DNA of 32,345 nt from Candidatus Firestoneibacteriota bacterium (GTDB lineage: Bacteria; Oederibacteriota; D2-FULL-39-29; JBDRBU01): NCBI GenBank assembly GCA_043822305.1, contig JBDRBU010000077.1:1-32345 (forward strand). Direction: 5' to 3'. Shown here piece after piece: positions 3,066 through 28,663 of the stretch (the stretch's first letter is position 1; every line of letters begins with the position of its first letter). Position numbers and translations under genes: made by a program. The notes under the pieces were generated by a model that did no database searches, was not told the origin of the DNA, and saw only the letters and a program-made list of their open reading frames with translations.

Positions 3066-3090
3066 CACGCAGACTAAAGTCTGCGGCTAC
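3066..3090 (-). repeat. GTAG-footed REP-like hairpin (intact copy)
   Basis: Minus strand GTAGC-CGCAGACT-TT-AGTCTGCG-TG; the same arms recur at 11910-11985 and 28601-28663. Confidence 0.8.
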
Positions 3091-3095
3091 AATAA

Positions 3096-3143
3096 GCCTA
3101 ATAAACCTGTCCCCGAAATTTTTAATCGGGATCAAGCAACTAC
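3096..3143 (-). repeat. Second GTAG-footed hairpin interrupted by a CCTGTCCCCGA...TCGGG hairpin
   Basis: Plus strand gcctaataaa[cctgtccccgaaatttttaatcggg]atcaagcaactac; outer arms pair with G-T wobbles. Confidence 0.55.
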
Positions 3144-3149
3144 ATTTGC

Positions 3150-4268
3150 TTACTCTGTTTTCTTTCTTAAAAAAGTAGGTATATCCCAGTTCTCGCCCTC
3201 CATATATGATTTCACTTTTTCTTCTAAATTATTTACACCCATCTCTCTTTTTATCCCATCTATTGAAACTTTATTTTCTACTTTCTCTTTATTAACAACT
3301 TCTTCTACAACTTTCTGAGTAAAACCTGTGGCTATGACCGTAATCTTAATCTCGTTGTGAAGTTTTTCATCTATCACTGTTCCAAAAATTATATTGGCCT
3401 CTTTATGTGCCTTTTCATAGATTATCGATGTTGCTTCATTCACCTCAAATAAACTTAAATCCAGTCCTCCTGTAATATTTATAAGAATCCCTCTTGCCCC
3501 TTCAATATTTACATTTTCAAGAAGCGGACTGGTCACAGCCATTTCTGCTGCTTTTGTTGCTTTATTTTCACCACTGGCTATACCTATCCCCATTAAAGCA
3601 CCACCCATTTCAGCCATAATTGTTCTCACATCAGCAAAATCTACATTAACTAATCCTGGAATTGTTATAATATCTGAGATACCTTGAATCGCTTGTCTTA
3701 AAACATCATCGGCAATATTAAACGCATCCATCATAGAAGTTTGTTTTTCAACTATACTAAGTAATTTCTGATTTGGAATAACGAGGAGTGTATCTACCTT
3801 TTCTTTAAGTTCCTTCAATCCTGCATCAGCATATAACTTTCTTCTATATCCTTCGAAGACAAAAGGTTTAGTAACTACTCCTACAGTTAAAGCACCACTT
3901 TCCTTTGCTACTTCCGCAATTATTGAAGAAGAACCTGTTCCTGTTCCACCTCCCATACCAGCCGTAATAAATACCATGTCAGCTCCAGCAATTATCTCTT
4001 TGATTTTTTCCCTGTCCTCTTCTGCTGCTTTCTTTCCTACTTCTGGATTTGCTCCTGCGCCAAGTCCTTTAGTTAATTTTGCTCCTATCTGCAACTTTAC
4101 TCCAGCGTTGCTCCTTCTTAGCTGTTGCATATCAGTATTTATGGCAATAAACTCCACTCCAGAGATAGTAGCCGCAACCATTCTATTTACTGCATTATTT
4201 CCTGCACCTCCAACTCCTATTACTTTTATATGTGCTGAAAAAGTTGGTTCATTTGCAAATTCTATCAT
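3150..4268 (-). CDS. ftsZ: Cell division GTPase FtsZ
   Basis: [13 protein letters not shown], tubulin motif [17 protein letters not shown]-terminal [18 protein letters not shown]. Confidence 0.99.
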
Positions 4269-4292
4269 ATTACCTCCTTTAACCGATTTGGT

Positions 4293-5540
4293 TTAAAAAA
4301 ATTCTTCAAACCATGTTTTCATTTTATTTAAAACTCTGTCAAACAAATTTCCACCGCTAGCCCTTAATCCACTTCTTCCCTGGCTTCTACTTTTTGCTCC
4401 ATATAACATTAAACCTACGGCCGTGGCGTATATTGGACTATTTACTACTTCCACTAAACCACTAATCCCTGTTGGATATCCTACTCGGACTGGCAGTTTC
4501 AATACTTTCTCTACCACCTCCTCTATACCGGATATTAAAGATGAACCACCAGTAACAACTACTCCGGCTGGAACATTGCCTTCAACACCGCTTGACTTTA
4601 ACTCTTGATTCACAAACTCAAATATTTCCTCTAATCTTGGTTGAATTATCTCGGCCACAATTCTTCTGGGAATAATCCTTTCTGGTCTACCACCAATAAG
4701 TTTTACTTTTATCTCTTCATCTTCATTTACAATCGGAGCAAAGGCACAACCATAATTTTTTTTAATCTCCTCTGATTGCTCAATAGGTGCTCGAAGTCCT
4801 ATGGCAATATCATTTGTGACCTGTATACCTCCTACAGAAATAACGGCCGTATGTCTTACACCTCCTTCTATAAAAACTATTATATCTGTCGTCCCACCTC
4901 CTATATCAATTAAAACAACTCCTAATTCTTTTTCATCAGAAGTTAAAACAGATTCACTGGAGGCAAATGGTTGTAAAACTATATCTTCAACATAAAATCC
5001 TGCTTTCTCTACACTACGAACTAAATCTTGGGCTCTTGATACATTAGCCGTAACAACATGAACTCTTGCTTTTAATCTTGTTCCATACATTCCTACCGGG
5101 TCTTTAATTCCATTTTGATCATCTACTATAAACTCCTGCGGAATAATATGTATTACTTCCCTATCTAATGGAACTGAAGTAGTTTTAATTGCTTCAATTA
5201 CCCTGTTAACATCTAATTTAGTTACTTCTTTGTTTTTGCTAGAAACGGCTACAACTGCTTCGGTATTTATACCTTTTATATGCCCTCCAGCAATACCGGC
5301 ATAAACAGAACCAATTTCTACTCCCGACATTCTACAAGCATCATCAACTGCCTTTTTAATCGACTCAACAGTTGACTCTATATTAACTACAATCCCTTTT
5401 CTTAAACCTCTTGATACAGTGTTACCAATACCTATGACACTTATACTCCCATTGTTATTTATTTCTCCAATAATACAACATATCTTGGTTGTCCCAATGT
5501 CTAATCCGGCAACTATCTTTTCGTTTTCATCTTTAGCCAA
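4293..5540 (-). CDS. ftsA: Cell division protein FtsA
   Basis: GLDIGTTKI, IDIGGGTTD, VVTGGSS, YATAVGL; likely TTG start at 5540 after SD AAGGAGGTG (ORF track uses ATG 5561). Confidence 0.98.
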   Translation of the reverse strand: MAKDENEKIVAGLDIGTTKICCIIGEINNNGSISVIGIGNTVSRGLRKGIVVNIESTVESIKKAVDDACRMSGVEIGSVYAGIAGGHIKGINTEAVVAVSSKNKEVTKLDVNRVIEAIKTTSVPLDREVIHIIPQEFIVDDQNGIKDPVGMYGTRLKARVHVVTANVSRAQDLVRSVEKAGFYVEDIVLQPFASSESVLTSDEKELGVVLIDIGGGTTDIIVFIEGGVRHTAVISVGGIQVTNDIAIGLRAPIEQSEEIKKNYGCAFAPIVNEDEEIKVKLIGGRPERIIPRRIVAEIIQPRLEEIFEFVNQELKSSGVEGNVPAGVVVTGGSSLISGIEEVVEKVLKLPVRVGYPTGISGLVEVVNSPIYATAVGLMLYGAKSRSQGRSGLRASGGNLFDRVLNKMKTWFEEFF

Positions 5541-5557
5541 TTTTCTCACCTCCTTTT

Positions 5558-6394
5558 TCATTTAAACATTACAGATGCTTCGTCTCTAAACCTTAAATCC
5601 ACATATGCAATATTTTGTCTCTTATCATTTAGATTTTTTAAAACATTAATAAGTTTCTCAAGTTTTTCTTCCCAATTTCCTAGGCCAATTTTAAATCTTT
5701 GATTTAACCCCTCATTAATTAATGTTAACTCTTCTAATTCATTTACATCTATTCTGGCTATTTCATTTAAAAATGGTGAATTCATTTTATTTATTTCATC
5801 AATCATTTGTAAACTTTGCCTTAAGATAACATTATCTCCTTTCCGGCCTAGATCATTAGGATTCATATTGAAACCTACTAAGACAAAGACTTTCTTTCCA
5901 TAAAAATAAGATTTTATTGATGGAAAGACTACACATTCTTTATCAACCTGATACAACTTATCTTCACCAATATAGGCTACTGGTTCCCTCTCTTTTACAT
6001 TTATTTCAATTGTAGATGGAAATATTCTATTCACCTCGACTTCTTTAATCTGTGCATTTATCTTTATTCCTTTCTCAATATCTTTAATATTTATTTTGAA
6101 TATGTTCTTACCATTTTCTATCCTGGTTAAAGCAAGTACCTCATTTTTACTTATATATTTATTTCCGGTAATTTTTATATTTTTTAAATTAAAACCGGGT
6201 GAATCATACAAATAATCATAACCACCTTTTAACCCCAGCACTATTAAAATTAAACCTGTTAGCCAAACAACTGTTTTAAAAATCTTTTTAAAACGAATAT
6301 CTCCTTTCCCTTTAATTTCAAAATTATGACTATGGCTTTTTAATTTCACTTCTTTGCCACTCCTGTATTTTGAATAAAACATTACTTTATTCAT
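5558..6394 (-). CDS. ftsQ: Cell division protein FtsQ/DivIB
   Basis: Single N-terminal TM, POTRA-like segment (ITGN...RIFPSTIEINVKEREP), C-terminal YVDLRF; between ddl and ftsA. Confidence 0.92.
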   Translation of the reverse strand: MNKVMFYSKYRSGKEVKLKSHSHNFEIKGKGDIRFKKIFKTVVWLTGLILIVLGLKGGYDYLYDSPGFNLKNIKITGNKYISKNEVLALTRIENGKNIFKINIKDIEKGIKINAQIKEVEVNRIFPSTIEINVKEREPVAYIGEDKLYQVDKECVVFPSIKSYFYGKKVFVLVGFNMNPNDLGRKGDNVILRQSLQMIDEINKMNSPFLNEIARIDVNELEELTLINEGLNQRFKIGLGNWEEKLEKLINVLKNLNDKRQNIAYVDLRFRDEASVMFK

Positions 6395-7374
6395 CTTTTC
6401 AAAGCATTGATTAACATTTCCAAAACCATCTTTTCGAAACTTATACCAATAAATCTTAATGCTTCAGGCAATAATGAAGTTTTCGTAAGTCCTGGTAATG
6501 AATTAACTTCTAATACATAAATCTTATTGTGATCTCCCAGAATCATATCAACCCTGGAAAAATCTTTAAGTCCCAAAATTTTATGTGCCTGCCAGGCTAA
6601 GTCCTGTGCTTTTTTATAAATACTGGATTTAATATTAGCGGGTAAAATATGTCTTGAGAACCCTTTTACATATTTTGCTTTATAATCATAAAACTTTGTT
6701 TTTGAAATTATTTCAATAACAGGTAGTGCCTTATTATCAAAAATTGGAACTGTAATTTCTTTACCTTTTATGTACTTTTCAATTAAGACTTTTTCACTAT
6801 ATTTAAAAGCAAGACTCATGGCTTTCTTTAAATTTTTAAGTTTACTTACTATATTAACACCTATGGTCGAACCGCAATCATTTGGTTTTACTACAACTGG
6901 CAAATCCATTTCAAGAAAAGGTTCTCTTTTAATCTGTAATTCGCAATTCGTCATTGATCTTTTAAACAAATCTCCTTTGTTAAATACCTGATATTGAGGT
7001 GTGGGTATCCCACCCTGTACAAAAATCTTCTTTGTAATTATTTTATCCATGGCTACGGCACTGCTTAAAGTATCTGAACCAATGCAAGGGATTCCCATAA
7101 TCTCAAGTGCACCTTGAATTTTGCCATCTTCACCATAACAACCATGTAGTGCTAAAAAAACTAAATCTATCTTTGATTTTCTTATTAATGTAAAAATATC
7201 TCTTCTATTATTTCGACTAAAATCTATCTTAACAAATTTTAGTCCTATTTTTTTAAAAGCTTTTTCTACTGCTCTTCCACTTCTTAAAGCAATATCTCTT
7301 TCGGGTGACAACCCACCCGTTATAAGTCCAATTCTTTTATTTTTTAAAATCTTTATTTCATTCACTTCTTCCAC
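6391..7374 (-). CDS. ddl: D-alanine--D-alanine ligase
   Basis: GGLSPER, LHGCYGEDG, AMDK, FYDYKAKY, LEVNSLPG; GTG start. Confidence 0.97.
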   Translation of the reverse strand: MEEVNEIKILKNKRIGLITGGLSPERDIALRSGRAVEKAFKKIGLKFVKIDFSRNNRRDIFTLIRKSKIDLVFLALHGCYGEDGKIQGALEIMGIPCIGSDTLSSAVAMDKIITKKIFVQGGIPTPQYQVFNKGDLFKRSMTNCELQIKREPFLEMDLPVVVKPNDCGSTIGVNIVSKLKNLKKAMSLAFKYSEKVLIEKYIKGKEITVPIFDNKALPVIEIISKTKFYDYKAKYVKGFSRHILPANIKSSIYKKAQDLAWQAHKILGLKDFSRVDMILGDHNKIYVLEVNSLPGLTKTSLLPEALRFIGISFEKMVLEMLINALKR

Positions 7375-7432
7375 TTTTCCCCCACTTCTTCCAATCCTCT
7401 AATCCTCCGCGACTCCAAGTATCCAATCTCCT

Positions 7433-8299
7433 CTAACCCTCTCCCACTATAATTATTTCTTCTTCCAACTTTATTCCTTTCTTTTCCTTAACTACTTTTT
7501 TTATTTTATTTATTAATCTTATGACATCTTTGCTTGAATTTCCTTCGTTTATTAAAAAATTAGCATGTTTTTGTGAAACCCTTACTTTCCCAATCCGAAC
7601 GCCTTTAAGTTTACATTCCTGTATTATTCTTCCAGCACCATCTCCTTCAGGATTTTTAAAAACACAACCAGCACTACTCCCCTTAAGTGGTTGCAATTCT
7701 TTTCTTTTATTTAAAAAAATTTTTATTCTATTTTTTACATCATCTTTTTTATCCTTTTTTAGTTTAAACTTTACATAAATTATAATTAAATTATTAAATT
7801 TAAATTCTGATTCCCTGTAGCCAAATTTAATATTCTCCCTTTTTATTCTTCGGGAATGTCCCTTTTCATCTATAACCGTAACATTATTTAAAACATCTTT
7901 TATTTCTTTTTCTTTAATACCTGCGTTCATAAAAACAGCCCCACCTACCGTACCCGGAATACCGGCTAAAAACTCAAGTCCATTTAACCCCTCTCTTAAA
8001 GAAATATTTAAAACTTTATTTAACCTGACACCGGCACCACAAATTAGTGTATTTCCAGATACTTTGATTTTTTCAAATTCTCCTTTTAATCTTACAACTA
8101 GACCTCTTATCCCTTTGTCTTTAACAAGTAGATTTGTACCTGCACCTAATATAAAAACACCCAACCTTTCTCTTTCGGCCATATGCAATATCTTTTTTAA
8201 ATCCTTTAGATTTTCACAATCCATGAAAACATCTGCTACACCTCCCAGCCCAAAAGATGTATACTTGCTTAATGGTTCATTAATTTTAATTTTTATCAT
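7433..8299 (-). CDS. murB: UDP-N-acetylenolpyruvoylglucosamine reductase
   Basis: LGAGTNLL, GIPGTVGGAVFMNAG, FGYRES, GCVFKNP, HANFLIN. Confidence 0.97.
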   Translation of the reverse strand: MIKIKINEPLSKYTSFGLGGVADVFMDCENLKDLKKILHMAERERLGVFILGAGTNLLVKDKGIRGLVVRLKGEFEKIKVSGNTLICGAGVRLNKVLNISLREGLNGLEFLAGIPGTVGGAVFMNAGIKEKEIKDVLNNVTVIDEKGHSRRIKRENIKFGYRESEFKFNNLIIIYVKFKLKKDKKDDVKNRIKIFLNKRKELQPLKGSSAGCVFKNPEGDGAGRIIQECKLKGVRIGKVRVSQKHANFLINEGNSSKDVIRLINKIKKVVKEKKGIKLEEEIIIVGEG

Positions 8300-10748: not shown

Positions 10749-11859
10749 TTTTAATTTTCGAAATATTTAGTAAAATTCCTATGGCGATCATATTCATTAT
10801 TAATGAAGAACCGCCATAACTTATAAAAGGCAAAGTCATCCCTTTAGTTGGAAGTAATCCAGTGACAACACTCATATTCATAAATGCTTGTAATCCAATA
10901 TAAGAAGTAATTCCGGTAGCTAAAAGTTTTCCAAAAACTTCATTTGTATTTAAGGCTAAATTAATCCCTTTCCATATTATTAAACCGAATAAAATCAAAA
11001 TACATGTTACTCCTATTAGACCAAGTTCTTCAGCAATAATAGCAAAAATAAAATCAGTATGTGCTTCTGGTAAATAAAATAATTTTTGTGTTCCCTGACC
11101 AAGTCCTTTACCCATAAAACCTCCTGAACCAAAAGCAATAAAAGATTGAACTATTTGAAATCCAACACCCCTGGGATCCTTCCAAGGATCTAAAAATGCC
11201 ATTATTCTCTTTAATCTATACCCGGCACTAACTATCATAATAAATGCGACGGGCAAAGAAGATAAGAAAAATAAAAAAATATGACCTAACTTTACTCCCC
11301 CTACAAAAAGCATGATAATTCCCAATATTCCTATTAAAAAGATCGAACCTAAATCAGGTTGTATTATAAGTATTCCAAAAATAATTCCCATAATAACAAG
11401 ATATGGTAAAAAACCTTTTATAAAGCTTTTCATATATTCATGTTTACGAAAGATTGCTTCCGCGATGTAAATTATAAATGCTAATTTTACAAATTCACTC
11501 GGTTCAAAATTAAATCCAAAAATCTGTATCCATCTTCTTGCTCCCCCTCCTGCTTTTCCAATGTGTGGCACAAAAACAAGACACAAAATCACTATAGATA
11601 TTAAAAACAAAGGTCTGGCTATATCTTTAAACTTTTCATAGTTAAAGTTTTTAAAAAAAATTAACCCTAAACTCCCAAGTAGTATCCAAAAAATTTGTTT
11701 TCTTAAAAAATAAAAAGAATTTCCAAACTTATCATATGCGTAAATAGCACTTGAACTAAAAACCATAACAACACCAACAAACAAAAGCACTATGACTATT
11801 GTGATAAGTAAACCCCGCACCTCCTGGTACGTGGGTAAACCTTCTATTCTTGTCTTCAA
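10729..11859 (-). CDS. ftsW: SEDS peptidoglycan polymerase FtsW, with a 9-aa repeat-derived N-terminal insert
   Basis: GARRWI, EPSEFVK, QPDLGS, LPEAHTDFIF, PFISYGGSS; TTG start with SD AAGGAG. Confidence 0.97.
   Translation of the reverse strand: MKTRIEGLPTYQEVRGLLITIVIVLLFVGVVMVFSSSAIYAYDKFGNSFYFLRKQIFWILLGSLGLIFFKNFNYEKFKDIARPLFLISIVILCLVFVPHIGKAGGGARRWIQIFGFNFEPSEFVKLAFIIYIAEAIFRKHEYMKSFIKGFLPYLVIMGIIFGILIIQPDLGSIFLIGILGIIMLFVGGVKLGHIFLFFLSSLPVAFIMIVSAGYRLKRIMAFLDPWKDPRGVGFQIVQSFIAFGSGGFMGKGLGQGTQKLFYLPEAHTDFIFAIIAEELGLIGVTCILILFGLIIWKGINLALNTNEVFGKLLATGITSYIGLQAFMNMSVVTGLLPTKGMTLPFISYGGSSLIMNMIAIGILLNISKIKNEKSYY
11808..11840 (+). repeat. GTAAACCCCG palindromic element, 27-bp unit, in frame in ftsW
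   Basis: gtaaaccccgcacctcctggtacgtgggtaaac; GTAAACC at both 11808 and 11835. Confidence 0.85.
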
Positions 11860-11875: not shown

Positions 11876-11905
11876 TAGGAGTCGGGGTCGTCCCTAACCC
11901 CGACA
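11876..11905. repeat. GC-rich hairpin GTCGGGGT/ACCCCGAC in the murD-ftsW spacer
   Basis: 8-bp perfect stem (11881-11888 with 11897-11904), 8-nt loop; single copy in the window. Confidence 0.5.
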
Positions 11906-11909
11906 TACA

Positions 11910-11985
11910 CACGCAGGCTCGCACCCGCTTCGCGGTGCATTCCTAATTATTTATTTACATTAATGAAAATCAAGTCTGCGACTAC
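11910..11985 (-). repeat. GTAG REP-like element with a ~52-bp insertion in its loop; GTAG contains the murD stop
   Basis: Arms cacgcaggct and aagtctgcgactac match the intact copy at 3066-3090. Confidence 0.75.
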
Positions 11986-13367
11986 ATTTCACTTTCCTCT
12001 TTAATTTTTTTAACAGTCTCTTTAAAAACTTTCCCTCTTTCTTCGTAATTTTTAAACATATCAAAACTTGCACAACCAGGTGAAAGTAAAATTATATCAT
12101 TAGGAACAGATACTTTATATGCTTCTCTTACTGCTTCTTCCAAATTTATTGATTCAATGATATCAACATATCCTTCTAATGCATTTTTTATCTCTTTTTT
12201 TGCTTCGCCTATTAAAATAAGTTTCTTAACCTTTTTTTTCACAATATCTCTTAATTCTTCAAAATTACCTTTTTTATTTCTTCCACCAGCAATCAGCACA
12301 ATAGGTTCATCATAACTAAGTAAAGATTTTTCCACAGCAAAAATATTTGTACCTTGAGAATTATTGATAAATTTAACCCCATTGATCTCTGCTACAAATT
12401 CTTGTCTATGCTCAACTCCTTGAAATTTTTTTATAACATCAGACATTACTTTGATTTCAACATCATGAATATATCCTATTAAAGAAGCAACCATTATGTT
12501 TTCTAAATTATGCAAGCCCTTTATGATTACTTCTTCTTTATTGCAAACTGAAACCTCTTCATTACCAACCCTTATTTTTATCACACCATCATTATCCAGA
12601 TAAACCCCTTCTTCAACTTTAGAAGTACTGCTGAATAAATAAATTTTTGACCTTGCCATTCCAGAAAACAGCGGGGTAAATCTATCATTTGCATTAAGTA
12701 TTAAAATATCCTTCTTTTCCTGATTTTTAAATATCATTGACTTAGCTTCAACATATTCTTGAATATTCTTATATCTGTTCATATGATCAGATGAAACATT
12801 TAAAATAACTGCAATATCTGGTTTAAAATCTTTAATGGTTTCAAGTTGAAAACTACTTAGTTCAACAACATATATTACATTTTCTTCATTATTTCCATTT
12901 GCAACTAAGGATGTTAATGGCTTTCCTATATTGCCTCCTGTTTTTACTTTTCTGCATGCGCAACCTTCTTTTAAAATATCACTTAAAAGTGTAACAGTTG
13001 TAGTTTTCCCCTTTGTCCCTGTAATTCCAACAACCTGCCCTTTCAGAAAACGATAAGCAAGCTCAACTTCACTAATTACATCAATATTTTTCTCTATTAA
13101 TTTACTTAAAGGAATTACATCTGATGGAACTCCCGGAGAAATAATTATTTTATCTGCATTAAGTAATATTTCTTCTGTATGCCCACCTAAATCAAACTTA
13201 AAATCTTCTTTATTTTCTAACATATTCATATACTCTGTTAATTCGTTTTCTTTCCTTAAATCACTTATGGTGATATGTGCACCTAATTTTTTTAATAACT
13301 TAGCCGCAGATACTCCACTCTTACCTAAGCCTAAAATTACTATCCTTTTATCTTTAAAATCTTCCAT
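11982..13367 (-). CDS. murD: UDP-MurNAc-L-Ala--D-Glu ligase
   Basis: GLGKSG, SPGVP, GTKGKTTT, GGNIG, ELSSFQL, LSPGCASFD. Confidence 0.98.
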   Translation of the reverse strand: MEDFKDKRIVILGLGKSGVSAAKLLKKLGAHITISDLRKENELTEYMNMLENKEDFKFDLGGHTEEILLNADKIIISPGVPSDVIPLSKLIEKNIDVISEVELAYRFLKGQVVGITGTKGKTTTVTLLSDILKEGCACRKVKTGGNIGKPLTSLVANGNNEENVIYVVELSSFQLETIKDFKPDIAVILNVSSDHMNRYKNIQEYVEAKSMIFKNQEKKDILILNANDRFTPLFSGMARSKIYLFSSTSKVEEGVYLDNDGVIKIRVGNEEVSVCNKEEVIIKGLHNLENIMVASLIGYIHDVEIKVMSDVIKKFQGVEHRQEFVAEINGVKFINNSQGTNIFAVEKSLLSYDEPIVLIAGGRNKKGNFEELRDIVKKKVKKLILIGEAKKEIKNALEGYVDIIESINLEEAVREAYKVSVPNDIILLSPGCASFDMFKNYEERGKVFKETVKKIKEESEM

Positions 13368-14498: not shown

Positions 14499-15929
14499 TT
14501 ACCTCCTCAAAATATTTTTCAACTTCAATACAATTTCTTCCATTTTCATCATTCTTGAGCCTTTTATTAAAACTACATCATCTTTTTTCAAAAAATTCCT
14601 TAACAGATTCACTACTTCATCTTTATTGTCAAAATGAAACATATTTTTTTTGTTCATCCCTTTCATCATTGCCCCTTTATTTACATTCTCACTTAATTCA
14701 CCCAATGTAATTAAAATATCTATATCACCATCCTTTATTAATGCACCTATTTCTTTATGAAAGTTTGCCTCTTTATGGCCTAACTCGGCCATATCTCCCA
14801 GAACTATTATTTTTCTTTGGCTATGCATATTCTTAAGTACTTTTATTGCTTCTCTTACAGAATCCGGATTTGCATTATATGTATCATCTATAATAAGGAC
14901 TTTCTTCATTTTAAACATCTCAAGCCTATGCGGTGAACTTATTTTAAAATCTTCCAATGCTTTTTTTATTATATTAATATTCATACCTAACGAAAAACTG
15001 GCTGACACGGCCGCCAGCGCATTATAAATATTATGCATTCCCAGAAGATGAAGATTAATAGTCTTCTTACTATTTAATATTCTTAAAGTAAACCCCGTAC
15101 CCTCTAGTGGTGCGTGGGTAAACCCCGCACCCTTTGGTCTGTTGGCAAAAATGCGACTAGCCCTTACATCCGCTTTATTTTTTATTCCATATGTTAAAAT
15201 TTTCTTATTTTTAACACTGGGTAAAGCCAATCTTAAATATTTATCATCAACATTAATAATTGCTGTCCCCTTTTCTTTTATTCCTCTGACTAAATCCATT
15301 TTTTCTTTAAAAACATTTTTCTCATTTCTAAAAAACTCTAAATGTGTTCTGCCTATATTAGTTATAATACCTATATCCGGTCTGGCTATCTCAAGCAATT
15401 CTTTTATCTCCCCTTTTAAGTTTGTTCCATACTCCAAGACAAGTAAGTTATATGAATAATCTAATTCAAGTATTGTCAAAGAAATACCTATAGAATTATT
15501 AAAACTTCCCTTTGCTTTCAAAACTTTATTTTCTTTACTTAAAATATGGGCTATTATGTCTTTTGTCGTAGTTTTACCATTACTACCAGTTACGCCTATT
15601 ATTTTTAAATCTTTAAATTTGGACAAATAATATTTTGATATACTTTTTAATGATTGTAGTGTGTTATGAACTTTAATAATTATTTTTGATTTTAATTCTT
15701 TAATGTTTTCTATTTCTTTTGAAATGATAATCCCTTTTGCACCTAACTTATCTACTTCCTTAATAAAATTATGTCCATCAAAATTCTTACCTTTTAATGC
15801 AATAAATAAATCATTTCTTTTCAAAGAACGACTATCAGTTGAAATCGAATCAAACCCATCTTCTTTATTGCCTTTTAAAAGGCTACCATGACAACACTTT
15901 AAAATCTCACCTACAAAGATTCTTTCCAT
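14499..15929 (-). CDS. murF: UDP-MurNAc-tripeptide--D-Ala-D-Ala ligase, with a repeat-derived insert
   Basis: STDSR, GSNGKTTTK, SFNNSIG, DDTYNANP, LGDMAELG, KGSR. Confidence 0.97.
   Translation of the reverse strand: MERIFVGEILKCCHGSLLKGNKEDGFDSISTDSRSLKRNDLFIALKGKNFDGHNFIKEVDKLGAKGIIISKEIENIKELKSKIIIKVHNTLQSLKSISKYYLSKFKDLKIIGVTGSNGKTTTKDIIAHILSKENKVLKAKGSFNNSIGISLTILELDYSYNLLVLEYGTNLKGEIKELLEIARPDIGIITNIGRTHLEFFRNEKNVFKEKMDLVRGIKEKGTAIINVDDKYLRLALPSVKNKKILTYGIKNKADVRASRIFANRPKGAGFTHAPLEGTGFTLRILNSKKTINLHLLGMHNIYNALAAVSASFSLGMNINIIKKALEDFKISSPHRLEMFKMKKVLIIDDTYNANPDSVREAIKVLKNMHSQRKIIVLGDMAELGHKEANFHKEIGALIKDGDIDILITLGELSENVNKGAMMKGMNKKNMFHFDNKDEVVNLLRNFLKKDDVVLIKGSRMMKMEEIVLKLKNILRR
15088..15154 (+). 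repeat. GTAAACCCCG element (30-bp unit) followed by a degenerate second copy, in frame in murF
   Basis: gtaaaccccgtaccctctagtggtgcgtgg then gtaaaccccgcacc...; GTAAACCCCG at 15088 and 15118. Confidence 0.85.
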
Positions 15930-20829: not shown

Positions 20830-20838
20830 ATCTTTTCC

Positions 20839-20934: not shown

Positions 20935-20941
20935 CTAATCT

Positions 20942-21424
20942 ATGAAAAACATGGTATTTAATGGGAAACTTATAAAAGTTTATAGTGTAAATAATAAAGA
21001 TCTTGTTATTCACCCTGGAGCATCTGTAGTAATACCCTTGATTTCAAAAGACAATATAATACTTGTGAAACAGTATAGATTTGCTATAAAAAAATGGACA
21101 TGGGAGGTGCCTGCTGGAACATTAAAATCTGAGGAATCTCCTTTAAGATGTGCAAAAAGAGAATTAGAAGAAGAAACAGGTTATAAAGCAGGAAAACTAA
21201 CAAAATTACTAAGTTTTTATTCATCTCCTGGATTTTTGTTTGAAAAAATGCATTTATTTCTTGCAACAGATTTGAAGATAGGAGTTTTAAATTTGGACGA
21301 AGACGAAAACATAAAAATTAAAGTATTTAACTTAAAAGAAATAGAAAAAATGATTTTTGAAAATAAGATTGTCGATGCAAAAACTCTTGTAGCCATCTTA
21401 TTTTTAAAAAACTTTCTAAAGTAG
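20942..21424 (+). CDS. Nudix hydrolase, ADP-ribose pyrophosphatase-like
   Basis: Nudix box GTLKSEESPLRCAKRELEEETG, plus HPGA, QYR, SPG, IVDAKT. Confidence 0.92.
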   Translation: MKNMVFNGKLIKVYSVNNKDLVIHPGASVVIPLISKDNIILVKQYRFAIKKWTWEVPAGTLKSEESPLRCAKRELEEETGYKAGKLTKLLSFYSSPGFLFEKMHLFLATDLKIGVLNLDEDENIKIKVFNLKEIEKMIFENKIVDAKTLVAILFLKNFLK

Positions 21425-21787
21425 AACTATAAGCCGAATTCTGTTTAAATGGCTATTTCTCTTTAGTATAAGTCACCTTATACTTTAAGCAACCTACCCA
21501 AGGGCAAAGCGGCACCACTTATTCCCTTCTATTTGGTCTTGCTCCGGATGGGGTTTGCCGTACACCATTTAGTTACCTAAACGGACGGTAAGCTCTTGCC
21601 TCACCTTTTCACCCTTACCCTAGACCTAAACAATAATGAACGGTTTAGGGCGGTTTATTTTCTGTGGCACTTTCCTACCCCGCACATTTATGTGCTGGGC
21701 CCTCGCATTACGAGGCATCCTGGCCTATGGAGTTCGGACTTTCCTCTCCCACCCTAAGGAGGGAGCAGCCATTCGTTCTACTTTAGA
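21415..21787 (-). ncRNA. rnpB: Bacterial RNase P RNA, probably type A
   Basis: Minus strand GAGGAAAGTCCGAAC, AGTGCCACAGAAA, GGGTGAAA, GGCAAACCCC, GGAGCAAG, ACAGAATTCGGCTTA; P4 and terminal P1 complementarity; exact ends approximate. Confidence 0.97.
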
Positions 21788-21853
21788 TAGTCTGGTTACT
21801 TTTGTAACCAACTATTCCTAATATTATTCATTTACATTATTGAAAGTCAAATA

Positions 21854-22558: not shown

Positions 22559-22623
22559 TCTACCTCCATCTAATTATTATTATAACATAGATATCTTCAA
22601 TAATACAAATGTTTTCTACTTTT

Positions 22624-23262
22624 CTACTTTTTCTTCCAGTCTTCAATAAACTTCTTTACCCCTAAATCTGTTAATGGATGCTTAATCATAAGTTCTAAAA
22701 CAGATTTTGGAACTGTAACAATATTTGTTCCGGCTAATGCAACTTCAAGCACATGCAAAGGTGTCCTTACACTTGCGGCTAAAACCTGTGTTCTAAAATC
22801 ATAGTTCTTGTAAATTTTAACAATATCTCTTATCAAATTTGTCCCAGACTGTGTTTCATCATCTAATCTCCCCACAAAAGGAGTAATATAGTCAACACCA
22901 ACTTTAGCCGCTAAGATCGCCTGATTTGCTGAAAAAATCAGGGTAAAATTAGTTTTTATCCCTCTTTTAGAAAGGACATTAACTGCTTTTATCCCTTCCT
23001 TAATAAATGGAATTTTTATAATTATATTTTCACTTATCTTAGAAAACACTTCTGCCTCTTTAAGCATATCATTAATAGAAGTCCCTATGGGTTCAACATG
23101 TATTGGGCCATTAACTATTTTAGAAATCTCCCTTAGCGTTTTCATAAAATTCTTCCCTTCTTTAGCCAGTAAAGTTGGATTTGTTGTGACACCATCAATT
23201 AAGTTAAACTCGTTCATCTCCTTTATCTCAGATATATTAGCACTATCTAAAAATATTTTCAT
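22624..23262 (-). CDS. tal: Transaldolase (short TalC/FSA family)
   Basis: IFLDSA, GVTTNPTL, IKIP (Schiff-base Lys), PFVGRLDD, LAASVR, HPLTD; Glu in HVEP and Phe in PFVGR favour transaldolase over FSA. Confidence 0.88.
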   Translation of the reverse strand: MKIFLDSANISEIKEMNEFNLIDGVTTNPTLLAKEGKNFMKTLREISKIVNGPIHVEPIGTSINDMLKEAEVFSKISENIIIKIPFIKEGIKAVNVLSKRGIKTNFTLIFSANQAILAAKVGVDYITPFVGRLDDETQSGTNLIRDIVKIYKNYDFRTQVLAASVRTPLHVLEVALAGTNIVTVPKSVLELMIKHPLTDLGVKKFIEDWKKK

Positions 23263-23283
23263 ATTTCCTCCTGAATAACTATT

Positions 23284-23712
23284 TTATTTTTCTTCGATAT
23301 TTTTAATAAATTCTCTTGCTGTTACTATTTTGATATTCTTATATTTTTTTAAAGTAAGAATATGCTTATCACCACTTATAAGATAATCTGCATTAAATTT
23401 TTCAGCACATTCCAATATTCTATTGTCATAGTCATCATTTATAATTTTTAATTTTTTATCTGGCATGACCACCATTGAATTATTATTAATTAACTCAATA
23501 ATTTCCTTCGTTTGACTTAATGGCCATGAAAATTTATTAATCAAAATATATGTTATTTCATTTAATATTTCTTTAGATATTCCCAAATCAAATTCTTTCA
23601 GTTTTACTTGTTTAAAGATATCTTCAGGTAGTCCTCCTGAAAAAACAATCATGGATATAAAGATATTGGTATCGCAGACTATCTTAATTTTTTTCGTCTT
23701 TTCTTGCTTCAT
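23284..23712 (-). CDS. PIN-domain putative toxin (VapC-like)
   Basis: IVCDTNIFIS, ILNE, DDYDNRILECA, ISGDKHIL; overlaps the upstream small gene. Confidence 0.9.
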   Translation of the reverse strand: MKQEKTKKIKIVCDTNIFISMIVFSGGLPEDIFKQVKLKEFDLGISKEILNEITYILINKFSWPLSQTKEIIELINNNSMVVMPDKKLKIINDDYDNRILECAEKFNADYLISGDKHILTLKKYKNIKIVTAREFIKNIEEK

Positions 23713-23926
23713 GTATTATCCTTTCAACATCCTCTTCGGTTAAAATCCCTTTTGCTTTTGCTGCCAACGAAAGTTCTTTTTGTATTTGCTTAAATCTTTT
23801 CCATTCAATATATTCTTTTAATGCTTCCATCACTATACCACTAACAGTTGTCATTTCCTCTTTTTTAATCTTCTCAAGTTTTGATACTAACTCTGATGGC
23901 AAGGTAATACTTATTGCTGTTTTCAT
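23684..23926 (-). CDS. Ribbon-helix-helix (CopG-like) putative antitoxin
   Basis: MKTAISITLPSELVSKLE...SGIVMEALKEY; SD GGAGGTG supports ATG 23926 rather than 23941. Confidence 0.85.
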   Translation of the reverse strand: MKTAISITLPSELVSKLEKIKKEEMTTVSGIVMEALKEYIEWKRFKQIQKELSLAAKAKGILTEEDVERIIHEARKDEKN

Positions 23927-23943
23927 AAAAACCACCTCCATTT

Positions 23944-23977
23944 ATATTATTTTATCATATTATTTTATAATAGTCAA
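23944..23977 (-). promoter_or_regulatory. Toxin-antitoxin promoter with a tandem operator-like repeat
   Basis: TTGACT-N17-TAAAAT with extended TG; 12-bp direct repeat ATATTATTTTAT at 23944 and 23957. Confidence 0.65.
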
Positions 23978-24023
23978 GATCTTACGGCTTTCACTTTTCA
24001 CTGACTTTCACTGACAATTTGCC

Positions 24024-24052
24024 TTGTTTTTTGATGTAAATATATTTATAAT
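24024..24052 (+). promoter_or_regulatory. Promoter for the moaD-like gene, probably leaderless
   Basis: TTGTTT-N17-TATAAT; ATG 6 nt downstream; no SD. Confidence 0.55.
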
Positions 24053-24058
24053 ACTACT

Positions 24059-24331
24059 ATGGTAAATGTAAACCCCACATCCTCTGGTGGTACGAGGGTA
24101 AATATCAAACTATATGCAAGTTTAAAAAATATATTTAAAAAAGACTCTTTTTTTACAAAAGTGTCAAGCATTAATGAATCTATCTTAAAACTTGAGGAAT
24201 TATCCAATAAAAAATTAGATAAAAATACCTTCTTTATAGTTATCAATGGTCAGGTTATAACAAATTATAAAGACTATCAATTAAAAGAAAACGACACCTT
24301 ACATATATTCCCGGTGATAGCCGGGGGATAA
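24059..24331 (+). CDS. MoaD/ThiS family sulfur carrier, with a 10-aa repeat-derived insert
   Basis: IKLYASL, IVING, LKENDTLHIFPVIAGG with C-terminal GG; close to the AOR gene. Confidence 0.88.
   Translation: MVNVNPTSSGGTRVNIKLYASLKNIFKKDSFFTKVSSINESILKLEELSNKKLDKNTFFIVINGQVITNYKDYQLKENDTLHIFPVIAGG
24068..24102 (+). repeat. GTAAACCCC element, 30-bp unit, in frame in the moaD-like gene
   Basis: gtaaaccccacatcctctggtggtacgagggtaaa; GTAAA at 24068 and 24098. Confidence 0.8.
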
Positions 24332-24375
24332 CAATTTAATTCTTTTGTTTTTCATAACCGTGTTTCTAACGAAGT

Positions 24376-24984
24376 TTACCATTTTTTTAATGTTTCCTTT
24401 GTTAAATTATCTGTATTTATACCTAATGTTTTTACTTTATATATTATCTTAGAAATATCTTCAAGTATACTAGCGTAATCAAGAGATTCTTCCAATGTTT
24501 TACCAATACTAAATGCACCGTGACCCCTGACGACAACAATTGGAAATTTTTTTAAAACCTTAGAGACTTTTTCCTCCATCTCTTTAGAACCACAACCAAA
24601 TTCAACTTTTATAACAGGAATTTTTTTTAAAACATAGCCACCTTCAGCATCAAGAGGTATGATCTCATCTTGATTAAACGATAAAACAACTGCATGTATA
24701 AGATGAGTATGAATTACGGCTAAAGCAGAAGTATTTTTTAGTATGGCCCTGTGCACATTAACCTCAGAAGACGCTAATGTTATACCAAAATCATCTTTAT
24801 CCAAACCAGTTTCTATTATATCATCTTCTTTCAAAAAGCCTAACATAGAACCACGACGGGTAATTAAGATTTTATCACCTAGACGAACACTCATATTGCC
24901 GCTATGAGAATTATTTAAACCTTTGTCACAAATAAATTTCCCTATCCTTCTGAATTCCTCTTTAATATCTTTATACTTTTCCAT
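24376..24984 (-). CDS. Class II aldolase/adducin family protein (fuculose-1-phosphate aldolase-like)
   Basis: SGNMSVR, SSEVNVH, VIHTH and RGHG metal-binding motifs. Confidence 0.88.
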   Translation of the reverse strand: MEKYKDIKEEFRRIGKFICDKGLNNSHSGNMSVRLGDKILITRRGSMLGFLKEDDIIETGLDKDDFGITLASSEVNVHRAILKNTSALAVIHTHLIHAVVLSFNQDEIIPLDAEGGYVLKKIPVIKVEFGCGSKEMEEKVSKVLKKFPIVVVRGHGAFSIGKTLEESLDYASILEDISKIIYKVKTLGINTDNLTKETLKKW

Positions 24985-25010
24985 ATATAAATCTCCTTGG
25001 AGAATTTTCT

Positions 25011-26795
25011 CTAACGGGGTAAATTCAGATCCTTTAATTTTTCTTCTTTTGGGATACCTTTTTCATCCCATTTTCTAAATTGATAATATTCTTTTAACAT
25101 ATCTTTTAGATTAACTACATGACCCTTACTTCCTCCTTCTTGAAAGGGTTCTTTCAAAAACCTTTCAGGAAGATTATCATCTTTATCAGAAAAACCTTCT
25201 CTTAAATTAAATAACCTTTCTAAATTATAAATCCTTTCTCCTGTTCTCATTAAATCTTCAGGTGCAAAATCTAACCCGGTAACAGCAGATAACATTCTTG
25301 CCCAACTTTGTTCAGAAAGTGCAAAAGTTGTAAATCTACAAACCACCAAAGAATCTACAGCCGCACCAAAATCCTGCAATCTTACAACATGCCCTGCTTT
25401 TCCAGTAGTTAGAAATCTATCAATTCTTCTTGGAACCCCTAATACTTCTGCACCAACTACATATCCTCCTCTTAAATGACACGCTCCTCTATTACTGGTA
25501 GCATATGTTAAACCCATCCCAACTGAACCTCGTGGGTCATATGCAGGAAGTTCAAGTCCTTTAACTTGCATTGAATACTTTATAGCCTTATATTTCTCTG
25601 ATAATCTTTTTGAGCCTTCGGCTAATTCATTTCCAATTCCTTTTCTAAAGGCAATATTTTTAATTGTATTTTTAATTTTTTTCTTTTCACCAAATCTTAT
25701 ACCAAAATCAATAATTCCTTTCCCGGTTAATTCCATGGCGCAAGCAATGGTTCCTCCTGTTGAGATTGTATCCATTCCCAGCATATTACATAAACGATTC
25801 ATCTCTGATATTAATTCAATATCATCTATGCCACAATTTGCTCCTAATGACCAAGTAGTTTCATACTCAGGGCCAGAACCTTTAAAACTTTTTGTCTTTA
25901 TCTTCCTGGCACATTGTATTATACCACATCCAAAACATCCAGAAGCTTTCTTTTCAAGAAGTTTTTCTGAAATTGCTTCCCCCGATATTTTAGAAGCTCC
26001 TTTAAATTCTCCAAACTGGAAGTTATTTGTAGGAAACATCCCAAAAACATTCATTAAATTTACAAGTACCGCTGTTCCATATTGTGGCAAAGCCTTTGAT
26101 GTAATAGGATGTGCTTTTAAATTTTTATTTGCTTCATAAAGAAATGAATTTAAACTTTCTTTATCAGAAATATTAATAGGTTTATCTCCTTTAACTAAAA
26201 TGGCTTTTAAATTTTTAGAACCCATGACAGCACCAGGTCCGCCTCTTCCGAATACTCTTTCTTTATCATTTATAACACAAGAAAATCTTACAAGATTTTC
26301 ACCAGCAGGTCCTATACAAACTACACTAAAATCTTTGCCTTCTTTGTCTAATAAAATATCTGTTGTCTCAAAAGTATCCTTACCCCATAAAAAAGAAGCA
26401 TCTTCAATTGTTACTAAATCATTATCTATTTTAATATAAATTGGCTTTTTAGATTTTCCTTTTATTATCAAAACATCAAAACCACACTTTTTTAATTTAA
26501 CTCCCCAAACTCCTCCTGATTGACAATCTAAAATTGTACCTGTTAACGGTGATTTTGTTGAAAGATTACTTTTTGAGGTTGGCACAGCCGTTCCTGTTAA
26601 AGGACCGTTAGAAAATATTAAAAGATTCTCTGGACTTAAAGGGTTAATACCTTTTTTTAAACCATCGTACAAAATTCTTGCTCCAAGTCCTCTTCCACCT
26701 AAATACTCTTTCAGTAAACTTTCCTCAATATTAAAATTTTTTATTTCATCTGATGTTAAATCTACTTTAATCCCTTTCCCCATCCAACCATTCAT
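25011..26795 (-). CDS. aor: Aldehyde:ferredoxin oxidoreductase (tungsten AOR family)
   Basis: YLGGRGLG, KSPLTG, IGPAGE, GRGGPGAVMGSKNLKA, CFGCGIIQC, GPEYET, GMDTIS, RGACHL. Confidence 0.93.
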   Translation of the reverse strand: MNGWMGKGIKVDLTSDEIKNFNIEESLLKEYLGGRGLGARILYDGLKKGINPLSPENLLIFSNGPLTGTAVPTSKSNLSTKSPLTGTILDCQSGGVWGVKLKKCGFDVLIIKGKSKKPIYIKIDNDLVTIEDASFLWGKDTFETTDILLDKEGKDFSVVCIGPAGENLVRFSCVINDKERVFGRGGPGAVMGSKNLKAILVKGDKPINISDKESLNSFLYEANKNLKAHPITSKALPQYGTAVLVNLMNVFGMFPTNNFQFGEFKGASKISGEAISEKLLEKKASGCFGCGIIQCARKIKTKSFKGSGPEYETTWSLGANCGIDDIELISEMNRLCNMLGMDTISTGGTIACAMELTGKGIIDFGIRFGEKKKIKNTIKNIAFRKGIGNELAEGSKRLSEKYKAIKYSMQVKGLELPAYDPRGSVGMGLTYATSNRGACHLRGGYVVGAEVLGVPRRIDRFLTTGKAGHVVRLQDFGAAVDSLVVCRFTTFALSEQSWARMLSAVTGLDFAPEDLMRTGERIYNLERLFNLREGFSDKDDNLPERFLKEPFQEGGSKGHVVNLKDMLKEYYQFRKWDEKGIPKEEKLKDLNLPR

Positions 26796-26807
26796 TTAAC
26801 ACCTCAG

Positions 26808-26832
26808 AAAATAGGGACAGACACCCTATTTT
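26808..26832. repeat. AAAATAGGGACAG palindrome, copy 1, overlapping the kinase stop codon
   Basis: aaaataggg-acagaca-ccctatttt. Confidence 0.65.
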
Positions 26833-28316
26833 AACTTTCCTTGTACTGTTAAAAATCTTTGATAACCTTCTTCCCATTGAGATTCATCCTGTGGTTCATA
26901 GATTACATTATCAAATGAATCTTTAACTATATTTCTTGCATCAATAAGTGTAGAAATTTCGCATTCTGCTACCATTTGCATTAAAATATTTCCTATTGCT
27001 GTTGCCTCAATTGGACCAGCAATAACAGGCATAGTAGCAGCATTAGCCGTAAACTGACATAAAAGTTTATTTTGAACACCTCCTCCAACTATATGCAATA
27101 CTCTTATTTTCCTCTTAGTTAATTTATTTAAATCATCTATAACTTTTTTATATGTAAAAGATAGACTCTCAAAAATACATCTTACGACTAAAGCCATGTC
27201 GTAAGGTACCGGTTGGTTAGTATAATTACAGTAATTTTTTATAGCCATTGTCATATTAGGAGGATTAAGGAAAGAATCATGATTCGGATCTATAAAACTT
27301 CTTAATCGCTTAGCTTTTTTTGCTAAATTTACTAACTTCTTATAAGAGATTTCTTCACTTTTTTCTTCCTGCCATTCTTTTCTACATCGTTGCAGTAACC
27401 AAAGTCCCATTATATTCTTTAAAAATCTATATGTTCCAAATGCTCCTCCTTCATTTGTAAAATTAAGTTCATAAGATTCTTTATTAATTATTGGTTCTTT
27501 AATCTCAACACCTAAAAGAGACCATGTTCCCGAACTTAAATAAGCCCAGTTTTCGTTATAAGTTGACGGCACAGATACAACTGCTGAACCTGTATCATGA
27601 GATGCAGGAGCACAAACTTTCACATTAGTTAAACTAGTTTCATTAGAAATTGATTTTAGTAAATTTCCTATCTTTATACCAGGGAAAATTACATCTGGCA
27701 TTATATGAGTTGGAATTTTCATCTTTCTAAGTAAATCTTTAGCCCATGTTTTTTTATCTGGAGAGAACATCTGTGTTGTTGTAGCATCTGTCCATTCACA
27801 TAATTTTTCACCAGTAAAGAAATAGTTAAATAAATCTGGAATCATTAAAAATTTCTTTGAAACCTTAAGAAGTGGAGAATCAGTAATTACAAGAGAAAGA
27901 AGTTGGTATAAAGTATTGATCTGCATAACTTGTATCCCAGTCTTTTTATATATTTCATATTTAGATACTTGTTTAAAAGCTTCTTTTAGTATTCCATTAG
28001 TGCGTTTATCTCTGTAATGAACTGGATTAGATAGTAAATTGCCATCTTTCCCAATTAACCCAAAATCAACTCCCCATGTATCCACTCCAATACTTTCCAA
28101 ATTGTTGCCATATTTTGATTTAAACATTTTTAAGGAATTTTTCATCTCTTTAAAAAGAGACAAAATATCCCAATATAAGGTATCGCCTAACATTTGAGGC
28201 TCATTCTTAAAACGGTGTAAGACTTCCAACCTTAGACTTTTGCCGTTAAAAAATCCAATAACTGCTCTACCGCTTTCAGCACCTAAATCAAACGCTAAAT
28301 ATTTTTTTTCTTTCAT
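26826..28316 (-). CDS. rhaB: Rhamnulokinase-like FGGY carbohydrate kinase
   Basis: AFDLGAESGR, GVDTWGVDF, HDTGSAV, SSGTWSL, FTNEGG, KNIMGLW, GPIEATAIGN; substrate not proven. Confidence 0.85.
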   Translation of the reverse strand: MKEKKYLAFDLGAESGRAVIGFFNGKSLRLEVLHRFKNEPQMLGDTLYWDILSLFKEMKNSLKMFKSKYGNNLESIGVDTWGVDFGLIGKDGNLLSNPVHYRDKRTNGILKEAFKQVSKYEIYKKTGIQVMQINTLYQLLSLVITDSPLLKVSKKFLMIPDLFNYFFTGEKLCEWTDATTTQMFSPDKKTWAKDLLRKMKIPTHIMPDVIFPGIKIGNLLKSISNETSLTNVKVCAPASHDTGSAVVSVPSTYNENWAYLSSGTWSLLGVEIKEPIINKESYELNFTNEGGAFGTYRFLKNIMGLWLLQRCRKEWQEEKSEEISYKKLVNLAKKAKRLRSFIDPNHDSFLNPPNMTMAIKNYCNYTNQPVPYDMALVVRCIFESLSFTYKKVIDDLNKLTKRKIRVLHIVGGGVQNKLLCQFTANAATMPVIAGPIEATAIGNILMQMVAECEISTLIDARNIVKDSFDNVIYEPQDESQWEEGYQRFLTVQGKLK

Positions 28317-28326
28317 AAAATATCAT

Positions 28327-28349
28327 AAAATAGGGACAGGTACTATTTT
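28327..28349. repeat. AAAATAGGGACAG palindrome, copy 2
   Basis: aaaatag-ggacaggta-ctatttt; first 13 nt identical to copy 1. Confidence 0.6.
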
Positions 28350-28355
28350 TTTTAT

Positions 28356-28372
28356 TCTGGTGCGTGGGTAAA
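28356..28372 (+). repeat. Right half of a GTAAACCCCG element
   Basis: tctggtgcgtgggtaaa; tggtgcgtgggtaaa is identical to the murF copy. Confidence 0.7.
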
Positions 28373-28403
28373 TCATGAAATTTTCGAACTGGTGAAATAT
28401 ATT

Positions 28404-28580
28404 CTAATCTTTCCTTGATTCAGATTTTTTGTCTTCGATAGAATCGTCTTTCATTGCTTTTTTAAATTCTTTTATGCTCTTACCTATAGCCGAACCAATC
28501 TCTGGAAGTTTTCCAGCTCCAAATATTATCAAGGCAATAACAAGTACTATTATTAACTCTGGAACTCCTATGTTACCCAT
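28404..28580 (-). CDS. tatA: Twin-arginine translocase subunit TatA/TatE (58 aa, absent from the ORF track)
   Basis: Manual translation [59 protein letters not shown]-rich SD. Confidence 0.95.
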
Positions 28581-28600
28581 TTTACACCCCCTGTATAAAT

Positions 28601-28663
28601 CACGCAGGCTAACCCTGTACCACTCGTTATACTCGAATACAGGACTACAGAACCTGCGACTAC
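28601..28663 (-). repeat. GTAG REP-like element with a ~38-bp hairpin inserted in its loop
   Basis: cacgcaggctaa...aacctgcgactac; inner stem cctgta/tacagg. Confidence 0.75.

Follow-up and report, generated by a model that had tools for sequence, protein, structure and literature searches.

The stretch of DNA analyzed here, contig JBDRBU010000077.1 of the Candidatus Firestoneibacteriota bacterium assembly GCA_043822305.1 (32,345 nt; hereafter the window), carries three copies of a GTAG-tagged repetitive extragenic palindromic sequence (REP), all of them on the plus strand and in intergenic positions between co-oriented minus-strand genes (Table 1). One copy is an intact short hairpin, while the other two have the same arms set apart by an insert that contains a hairpin of its own. 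When the whole assembly was taken into consideration (2.15 Mb in 125 contigs, 31.6% GC, 96.8% complete, the window being contig C77), 19 of about 90 REP copies (21%) were found to be filled in this way, with one or the other of two unrelated small repeats whose junctions and orientation within the REP are fixed in the 10 type A and 5 simple type B copies that keep both arms.

The REP consensus, CGCAGGCTAAAGCCTGCGACTAC, is the empty form, with 23 nt and a 7-bp perfect stem. The intact copy of the window carries a compensated variant of this stem (consensus CGCAGGC/GCCTGCG) and, folded as single-stranded DNA with z-scores and 200 shuffles as control, reaches -7.5 kcal/mol (z -4.8), which confirms in sequence and in fold the intact element of the original prediction. 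The two split REPs proposed at 11910-11985 and 28601-28663 do have the same arms around inserts; in both, an outer REP stem closes around the inner hairpin (z -2.3 each, 4 of 200 shuffles as good). Exact CTGCGRCTAC occurs 75 times in the 2.15 Mb, and the 23-mer with at most one mismatch occurs 48 times, as against zero for the same pattern read backwards; these copy numbers and this control rule out a chance origin of the repeats. In a more tolerant census, in which up to two mismatches were allowed in the right arm and a left arm was required within 260 nt, 267 right arms were detected and 93 were paired: 71 empty, 10 with a type A insert, 6 with a type B insert (one of these with three units) and 6 others, which were dropped as two doublets of another family and four chance or distant pairs. 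Searches with the insert cores raised the totals to 12 for type A and 7 for type B. Empty loops measure 4-6 nt, AAAG follows CGCAGGCT in 55 of the 71 empty copies, and CTAC sits one base (G or A) beyond the right arm. Copies are mostly single, with just a few inverted doublets (REPINs or BIMEs) in this genome. Mean pairwise identity is 92.4% among 10 type A copies, 91.9% among 5 type B copies and 91.7% among 69 empty 23-mers.

The type A insert of the window runs CCCTGTACC...ATACAGGACTACAG (38 nt), and the consensus of the type is a single hairpin of the same length, CCCTGTACC-loop-GRTACAGG-ACTAAAG. It is placed between CGCAGGCTAA and AGCCTGCG, directly 3′ of CTAA. The junctions read CGCAGGCTAA / CCCTGTACCACTCGTTATACTCGGRTACAGGACTAAAG / AGCCTGCGACTAC in 10 of the 10 paired copies, in a single orientation, and the sequence of the host REP is exactly restored on both sides without target duplication. 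The ends of the insert form 8-bp inverted repeats and are bracketed as CTAA...CTAA. All 12 cores are preceded by the REP left arm (degenerate in one), and one copy has no right arm. The original prediction had likened both inserts to a CCCCGYACC..GGTRCG element of coding sequences. For type A this likeness stands, as its stem CCCTGTACC/GGTACAGG differs by paired transitions from the stem CCCCGCACC/GGTGCG(T)GGG of that 30-nt in-frame element, whose form is CCCCGCACC..GGTGCGTGGGTAAA; for type B the match is limited to the inner 5 bp (GCACC/GGTGC). Type A belongs to a hairpin superfamily with the stem CCCYGYACC/GGTRCRGG, and related short-loop hairpins of the form CCCTGYACC...GGTRCAGGG are present outside REPs in this genome. 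The type A hairpin with the same loop (ACTCG..ATACTCG) also occurs in five other genomes of the phylum, where it stands alone, in tandem or within another hairpin, and the exact hairpin was found in four stretches of a public species collection, in metagenome-assembled genomes titled Candidatus Firestonebacteria and candidate division FCPU426.

The type B insert is a unit of about 52 nt of a 62-nt repeat family, here called HTE, whose nhmmer profile (E up to 1e-3) matches the window at 11925-11974 with E 3e-6. [quoted passage not shown] The family has the form (TA)GTCTG, then a hairpin, then AACTATTCCTAATATTATTTATTTACATTATGGAAAGTCATA, and it gave 72 matches in the genome, 8 in REP loops and 64 elsewhere, often in tandem (e.g. 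C121:14029-14209 and 15104-15226). The 45-nt tail is constant, and the hairpin varies among sub-lineages by paired changes (GTTCGC/GCGAAC, GCCCGC/GCGGGC, GGTTGC/GCAACC, GGTTAC/GTAACC and TAATTGC/GCAATTA). Orientation of HTEs is biased relative to GC skew (44:18). The original prediction had read the nested hairpins as one mini-element using REP loops as landing sites. REP loops do carry other repeat families at exact junctions, and both inserts belong to repeat families found outside REPs, but the inserts are two unrelated elements, not one; neither the scattered junctions nor the inserts foreign to any repeated family that would have spoken against such a hierarchy were found.

A third element, type C, is a 36-nt sister of type A, CCCTGTACCATTCGCAAGGYTCAGGCACAGGACAAG, with nine matches in the genome. 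Six HTEs carry it, each time at the exact point that separates TTCCTAA from TATTATTT. Where the insert is absent, the HTE reads TTCCTAATATTATTT, such that removal of the insert would give back the host sequence base for base, with nothing duplicated. The insert shares its polarity with type A in REPs and, like it, immediately follows CTAA. A CTAA junction common to two unrelated hosts points to genuine insertion that leaves the target unduplicated, and the earlier suggestion that the loop TAAA is a target fits insertion adjoining TAA(A). The six host HTEs represent three hairpin lineages (GTTCGC/GCGAAC in four, GATTAC/GTAATC in one and GCCCGT/GCGGGC in one), each of which also includes uninterrupted members; this argues for repeated insertion.

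Table 1. Repeat features of the window (positions are those of the whole stretch).
Feature	Position	Strand	Description
Empty REP	3066..3090	+	reads CACGCAGACTAAAGTCTGCGGCTAC; stem CGCAGAC/GTCTGCG, loop TAAA, tail GCTAC (GTAG on the minus strand)
Hairpin rejected as a nested REP	3096..3143	+	5-bp hairpin CCCGA/TCGGG beside CCTGTCCCC (GGGGACAG on the minus strand)
Hairpin of a further repeat family	11881..11906	+	GTCGGGGTC...GACCCCGAC, sequence GTCGGGGTCGTCCCTAACCCCGAC; abuts the type B REP; -9.0 kcal/mol, z -3.2
Type B filled REP	11912..11985	+	left arm CGCAGGCT 11912-11919, insert 11920-11972, right arm AGTCTGCG 11973-11980, tail ACTAC 11981-11985
Type B insert (53 nt)	11920..11972	+	hairpin GCACCCGC-TTC-GCGGTGC (11921-11938), then HTE-type tail ATTCCTAATTATTTATTTACATTAATGAAAATCA
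30-nt CCCCGYACC...GGTGCGTGGG(TAAA) element	15092..15122	+	within a long minus-strand open reading frame; stem related to the inner stem of type A
Free-standing HTE copy	21790..21851	+	E 2e-12; immediately upstream of the gene for RNase P RNA (minus strand, 21414-21784)
Type A filled REP	28603..28663	+	left arm CGCAGGCT 28603-28610, AA, insert 28613-28650, right arm AACCTGCG 28651-28658, tail ACTAC 28659-28663
Type A insert (38 nt)	28613..28650	+	hairpin CCTGTACC/(A)ATACAGG, loop ACTCGTTATACTCG, 3′ tail ACTACAG (consensus ACTAAAG)

We also looked for the REP and its inserts in other genomes of the phylum; those covered include none of the same genus or family, and a metagenome scan for close relatives with a protein of the window gave a best contig match of 52% amino-acid identity. 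An exact REP match was present in eight of 99 genomes, most having none or few, and this patchy distribution suggests transfer. A genome of the same class, G012, has 108-121 copies of the identical 23-nt REP, mostly arranged as inverted doublets with spacers of about 10-50 nt (e.g. C33:41049-41116). The 35 gapped REP matches obtained there (forward and reverse together) are all doublets; the A and B cores are absent, and there is no filled loop. Filled loops were absent from five REP-bearing genomes other than the present one, where all gapped matches were inverted doublets. As the REP of G012 occurs without inserts, filled loops track the presence of the insert families and not that of the REP itself.

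Six genes with a Y1_Tnp domain above the Pfam cut-off are encoded in the genome (on contigs C64, C51, C100 and C68, and two on C81). One is IS200-like (146 aa) and five are longer (223-323 aa), the latter being flanked by inverted repeats, which in most of the five are visibly of the GGGGACAG type. A link of the inserts to these repeats was considered and dropped, because by eye the terminal sequences differ. An intact REP-associated tyrosine transposase (RAYT) gene adjoining REPs was found neither here nor in the REP-rich relative, and a permissive Pfam scan of the genome added none. Two loci (C100:12450-12646 and C109:5595-5788, L115 and L116) do have two inverted REPs around about 150 nt in which a reading frame, after several stops, reads ..LTKHIAYILENPVREGLVVNTAG up to a stop codon, with a Y1-motif end of about 30 aa, ..HIAYILENPVREGLVVNTAG. 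The REP loop forms the TAA stop codon of this relic, whose final codons (..VVNTAG) make up the sequence GTAAATAC, which recurs on the left flank of other REPs. The relic matches the YxxxNPVR motif region of the Y1 proteins of the genome (BLASTP against a six-protein database, E 5e-4 to 0.02), and Pfam gave no match for its 28 aa. Since GTAAATAC is the end of the relic's frame, it is part of the REP unit and not a target preference. The host REP is thus the presumptive descendant of a REP/RAYT unit (REPtron) whose transposase gene is now a relic.

The left-flank sequences provide a means for following REP sub-lineages. Signatures of 8-13 nt are common to empty and filled copies: GCCTGATAAATCA was found with 6-7 empty, two type A and one type B REP, GTAAATAC with six empty and three type A, and ATAAAACA with four empty and one type A. 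In addition, the base before CTAC was seen as G and as A with two different insert variants. Types A and B therefore occur in at least two REP lineages, which indicates that insertion took place more than once or that copies exchanged sequence. The alternative that has to be weighed most carefully is that each type goes back to one founding insertion or fusion and that the composite was then copied, the 12 type A and 7 type B copies descending from two founders, since a filled REP would still be a REP for whatever spreads REPs or, in the case of type B, still an HTE. Such copying predicts that no free A or B copy exists, and this agrees with the observation that all 12 A cores and all 6 matches to the B hairpin (7 with the mid-core), a hairpin confined to REP arms in this genome, are preceded by the REP left arm. 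It is also consistent with the identical junctions within each type and with a divergence within A and within B that is about that within the empty REPs; moreover, the 8-bp arms of type A REPs (CGCAGGCT/AGCCTGCG) make a better stem than that of the empty REP, and co-amplification is visible for type C, three copies of which are alike in insert variant and host hairpin. On the other hand, A and B are spread over several REP sub-lineages common to empty copies, one signature being RAYT coding sequence; the G and A alleles before CTAC both occur with two insert variants; type C entered three HTE lineages; and the relative with 108-121 identical REPs has no filled loop at all. The group-3 RAYTs tested in PMC8266576 are described as requiring bases of the loop; given this requirement, a filled REP would probably be a poor RAYT substrate and its copying by a RAYT less likely. 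We consider descent from two founders a real possibility, albeit a less likely one.

On balance we lean, with confidence slightly better than even, toward the view that tiny hairpin elements entered the REP loop repeatedly and in a fixed orientation, along a route that would be single-strand and HUH/Y1-like, with some co-amplification of composites. Two different small non-coding repeats would have entered the REP loop, each in one fixed orientation. These elements would move as single-stranded DNA and be joined 3′ of a short CTAA target, which would be exposed in the loop of the REP hairpin or beside the hairpin in the HTE. This logic would be that of the HUH/Y1 enzymes of the IS200/IS605, RAYT and TIRYT kind, for which the six Y1 genes are the candidates. 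Insertion would have happened more than once and been followed by further copying of some composites. What the sequences show is the anatomy of the repeats, their copy numbers, the constant junctions and orientation, and the occurrence of the insert families outside REPs; that the route is single-strand, which kind of enzyme acts and how many insertions were independent are inferences. A filled loop would probably take the REP beyond the reach of its own transposase, and the loop may then be a harmless place to sit. A more specific proposal is offered here tentatively, and we regard it as rather doubtful: that the 36-38-nt single-hairpin element is itself mobile, being cut and joined as single-stranded DNA by an orphan Y1 (TIRYT-like) enzyme in one orientation, 3′ of a single-stranded CTAA at or beside hairpins, and that it colonizes in this way both REP loops and HTE tails.

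Several observations weigh against repeated insertion by such a route. The exact A and B variants were never found outside REP arms by core searches of this 96.8% complete assembly, and composite copying after a few founding insertions consequently remains a rival. The resemblance of the type C copies C18, C41 and C50 in both insert variant and host hairpin indicates that some composites were also copied. Three of the nine type C copies follow sequences other than CTAA, two of them within long open reading frames (ORFs), and CTAA alone cannot be a sufficient target, being very common in a genome of 32% GC. The type B junction is unclean, in that one loop base is missing and the 5′ end of the HTE overlaps the REP arm. 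Type A could be read as a case of CTAA duplication had its target been a REP whose loop was longer by 2 nt, a kind absent among the 71 empty copies. As for the enzyme, REPs are missing from the 1.5 kb around every Y1 gene (six genes here and five in the REP-rich relative), the flanks of the IS200-like gene show unrelated hairpins, and no Y1 gene has ends that resemble the inserts. REP orientation is not biased relative to local GC skew (45:40), a comparison in which contig skew may reflect gene strand.

The nested hairpins may alternatively be selected functional modules, such as RNA stabilizers, terminators or, for type B, a portable promoter, with mobility being secondary. The window copies are intergenic between co-oriented genes, as such modules might be. 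The type B insert has a promoter-like TTGATT-16-AATAAT on the minus strand, and the HTE at 21790-21851 has TTGACT-16-AATAAT on the minus strand, which is the strand of the RNase P RNA gene, both as consensus matches only; furthermore, an ORF start lies within 60 nt of the 3′ end in 30 of 70 HTEs, and 9 of the 70 end exactly at the start, where they read ..AAGGAAAGTCAATG (ribosome-binding site and ATG). However, promoter-hexamer matches in the B region are at the level of shuffled sequence (1 found, mean 1.2), RNase P was the sole match in an Rfam scan of the window at the gathering threshold, both filled REP regions, scanned permissively, gave zero matches, and function would leave the fixed CTAA junction in two unrelated hosts unexplained. 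We therefore regard this explanation as improbable. Least probable of all is that there is no separate element and that the long loops are internal REP variants to which slippage or a switch of template at the hairpin gave rise: PMC3733652 has REP families in which several loop types coexist, self-complementary to 27 bp in Bradyrhizobium, and the right half of type A (ACAGGACTAAAGAGCCTGCG) is loosely REP-like, but the idea is largely refuted by free-standing copies, as the A hairpin with the same loop occurs without a REP in other genomes, the sister type C sits in HTEs and ORFs, and the B insert is a recognizable unit of a family with 72 matches.

Much of this anatomy has counterparts in known systems. 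PMC3733652 (Di Nocera, De Gregorio & Rocco 2013) describes GTAG REP families in which short loops coexist with self-complementary long loops of up to 27 bp in Bradyrhizobium, as well as REPs inside other palindromes and REPs as targets of insertion sequences (ISs), and PMC8266576 (Corneloup et al. 2021) describes RAYTs of a perfect-palindrome group for which certain positions of the loop must not be altered; among the REPs assayed there, one has the loop TTTA, as does the window REP on its GTAG strand. The host REP is like the GTAG-tagged REPs and REPtrons of these two papers and of Nunvar 2010 in having 23 nt, a 7-bp GC-rich stem, a TTTA loop on the GTAG strand, a GTAG foot and about 90 copies, and the putative Y1 relic between two inverted copies, together with the inverted doublets of the related genome, may add to this likeness; it is unlike them in that there is no intact cognate RAYT here, one fifth of the loops are filled and the copies are mostly single. 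Long-loop families such as GTAG-14 of Bradyrhizobium share the palindrome within a palindrome and the presence of short- and long-loop members in one family. In the passages cited here, however, PMC3733652 treats the long loops as family variants, whereas here the inner parts are repeat families that also exist alone; and where it reports REPs of Anabaena, Thermomicrobium and Halothiobacillus within other palindromes, the REP is the inner partner, whereas here it is the outer one. In the portions cited, the ISs that target REPs (type 1 association, Tobes & Pareja 2006, PMC1525189; ISPpu9, PMC12288879) occupy one fixed REP position and encode a transposase. The inserts described here likewise sit at a fixed position, but they measure 38 and about 52 nt and have no ORF.

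The 'peel and paste' elements of the IS200/IS605 type, and the palindrome-associated transposable elements (PATEs) that derive from them and carry no gene, are alike in that they insert immediately 3′ of a fixed short sequence, do not duplicate the target, have asymmetric ends, depend on a hairpin and occur in genomes with Y1 genes. They differ in that A and C have one hairpin rather than one per end, are 36-38 nt long and match no transposase end, and in that the host REPs have no strand bias. Compared with a MITE, which has terminal inverted repeats and a target duplication, A has 8-bp inverted ends and C lies in the HTE without duplication. Elhai and co-workers (2008, Genome Research) reportedly described small dispersed repeats of cyanobacteria, hairpins some tens of nucleotides long that are mobile and lie within or beside one another; the present repeats are of another phylum and have other sequences. 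In the open-access papers searched, by titles and the beginnings of abstracts, we found no description of gene-less mini-elements inside REP loops. REPs as insertion targets, long-loop REPs and nested small repeats are thus already known; what is new is the presence of gene-less elements of 38 and about 52 nt in REP loops, in a candidate phylum.

Further repeats lie around these elements. The third nested case of the original prediction, a hairpin at 3096-3143 said to be enclosed by a different GTAG hairpin, was rejected: 3091-3146 folds without an outer stem (z -1.1, 26 of 200 shuffles as good), and the sequence is single-copy by BLAST. The motif beside it is of the GGGGACAG type that flanks the Y1 transposase genes. 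Next to the type B REP, the stop codon TAG of the minus-strand ORF 11982..13367 (CTA at 11982-84) falls in the GTAG tag, and 12-mers of the abutting hairpin at 11881-11906 have up to 31 occurrences in the genome, the same pairing of hairpin and REP being seen on other contigs. After the type A REP of the window the REP tail is doubled (CGACTACAAA CGACTACAAA, 28660-28679), with the stop of the ORF 28670..29839 in the second copy; a comparable tail duplication lies downstream of a REP on contig C91. In another genome (locus L011 of G024), the type A loop is found in a hairpin, CCATGTACC..GGTACATGG, that is itself nested in an outer GCCCTGTACC..GGTACAGGGC hairpin. A classical MITE family with the inverted ends GTAAATAGTCAGTGAAAGCC / GGCTTTCACTGAATACTTAC (58 matches) is inserted in HTEs and in a type B unit, the latter at C48 (last ~280 bases, reverse strand), where three levels of nesting are reached. 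The 30-nt hairpin element GTAAACCCCGCACCCTCTGGTGGTGCGTGG occurs singly or in head-to-tail arrays, within long ORFs in the window (11812-11845, 15092-15150 and 24072-24102) and as arrays of four to six units at C27 and C51.

These repeats touch on two wider questions, namely by what means repeats of REP size spread and how little HUH/Y1 enzymes need as a substrate. They provide a compact natural system in which about 70 empty and about 20 filled loops, two kinds of insert, base-exact junctions, a sister insert at the same tetranucleotide and six Y1 genes are found in one genome. If the insertions were not recurrent, this would simply be a REP family with two amplified long-loop variants. If the mobility of the 36-38-nt element holds true, it would be about the smallest target-specific mobile DNA known, REP loops would be refuges, and the filling of a loop would disarm the REP. 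Recurrent insertion would mean an element of very small size whose target rule can be read off, and small repeats that structure one another's distribution, a repeat-in-repeat ecology, in an uncultured candidate phylum.

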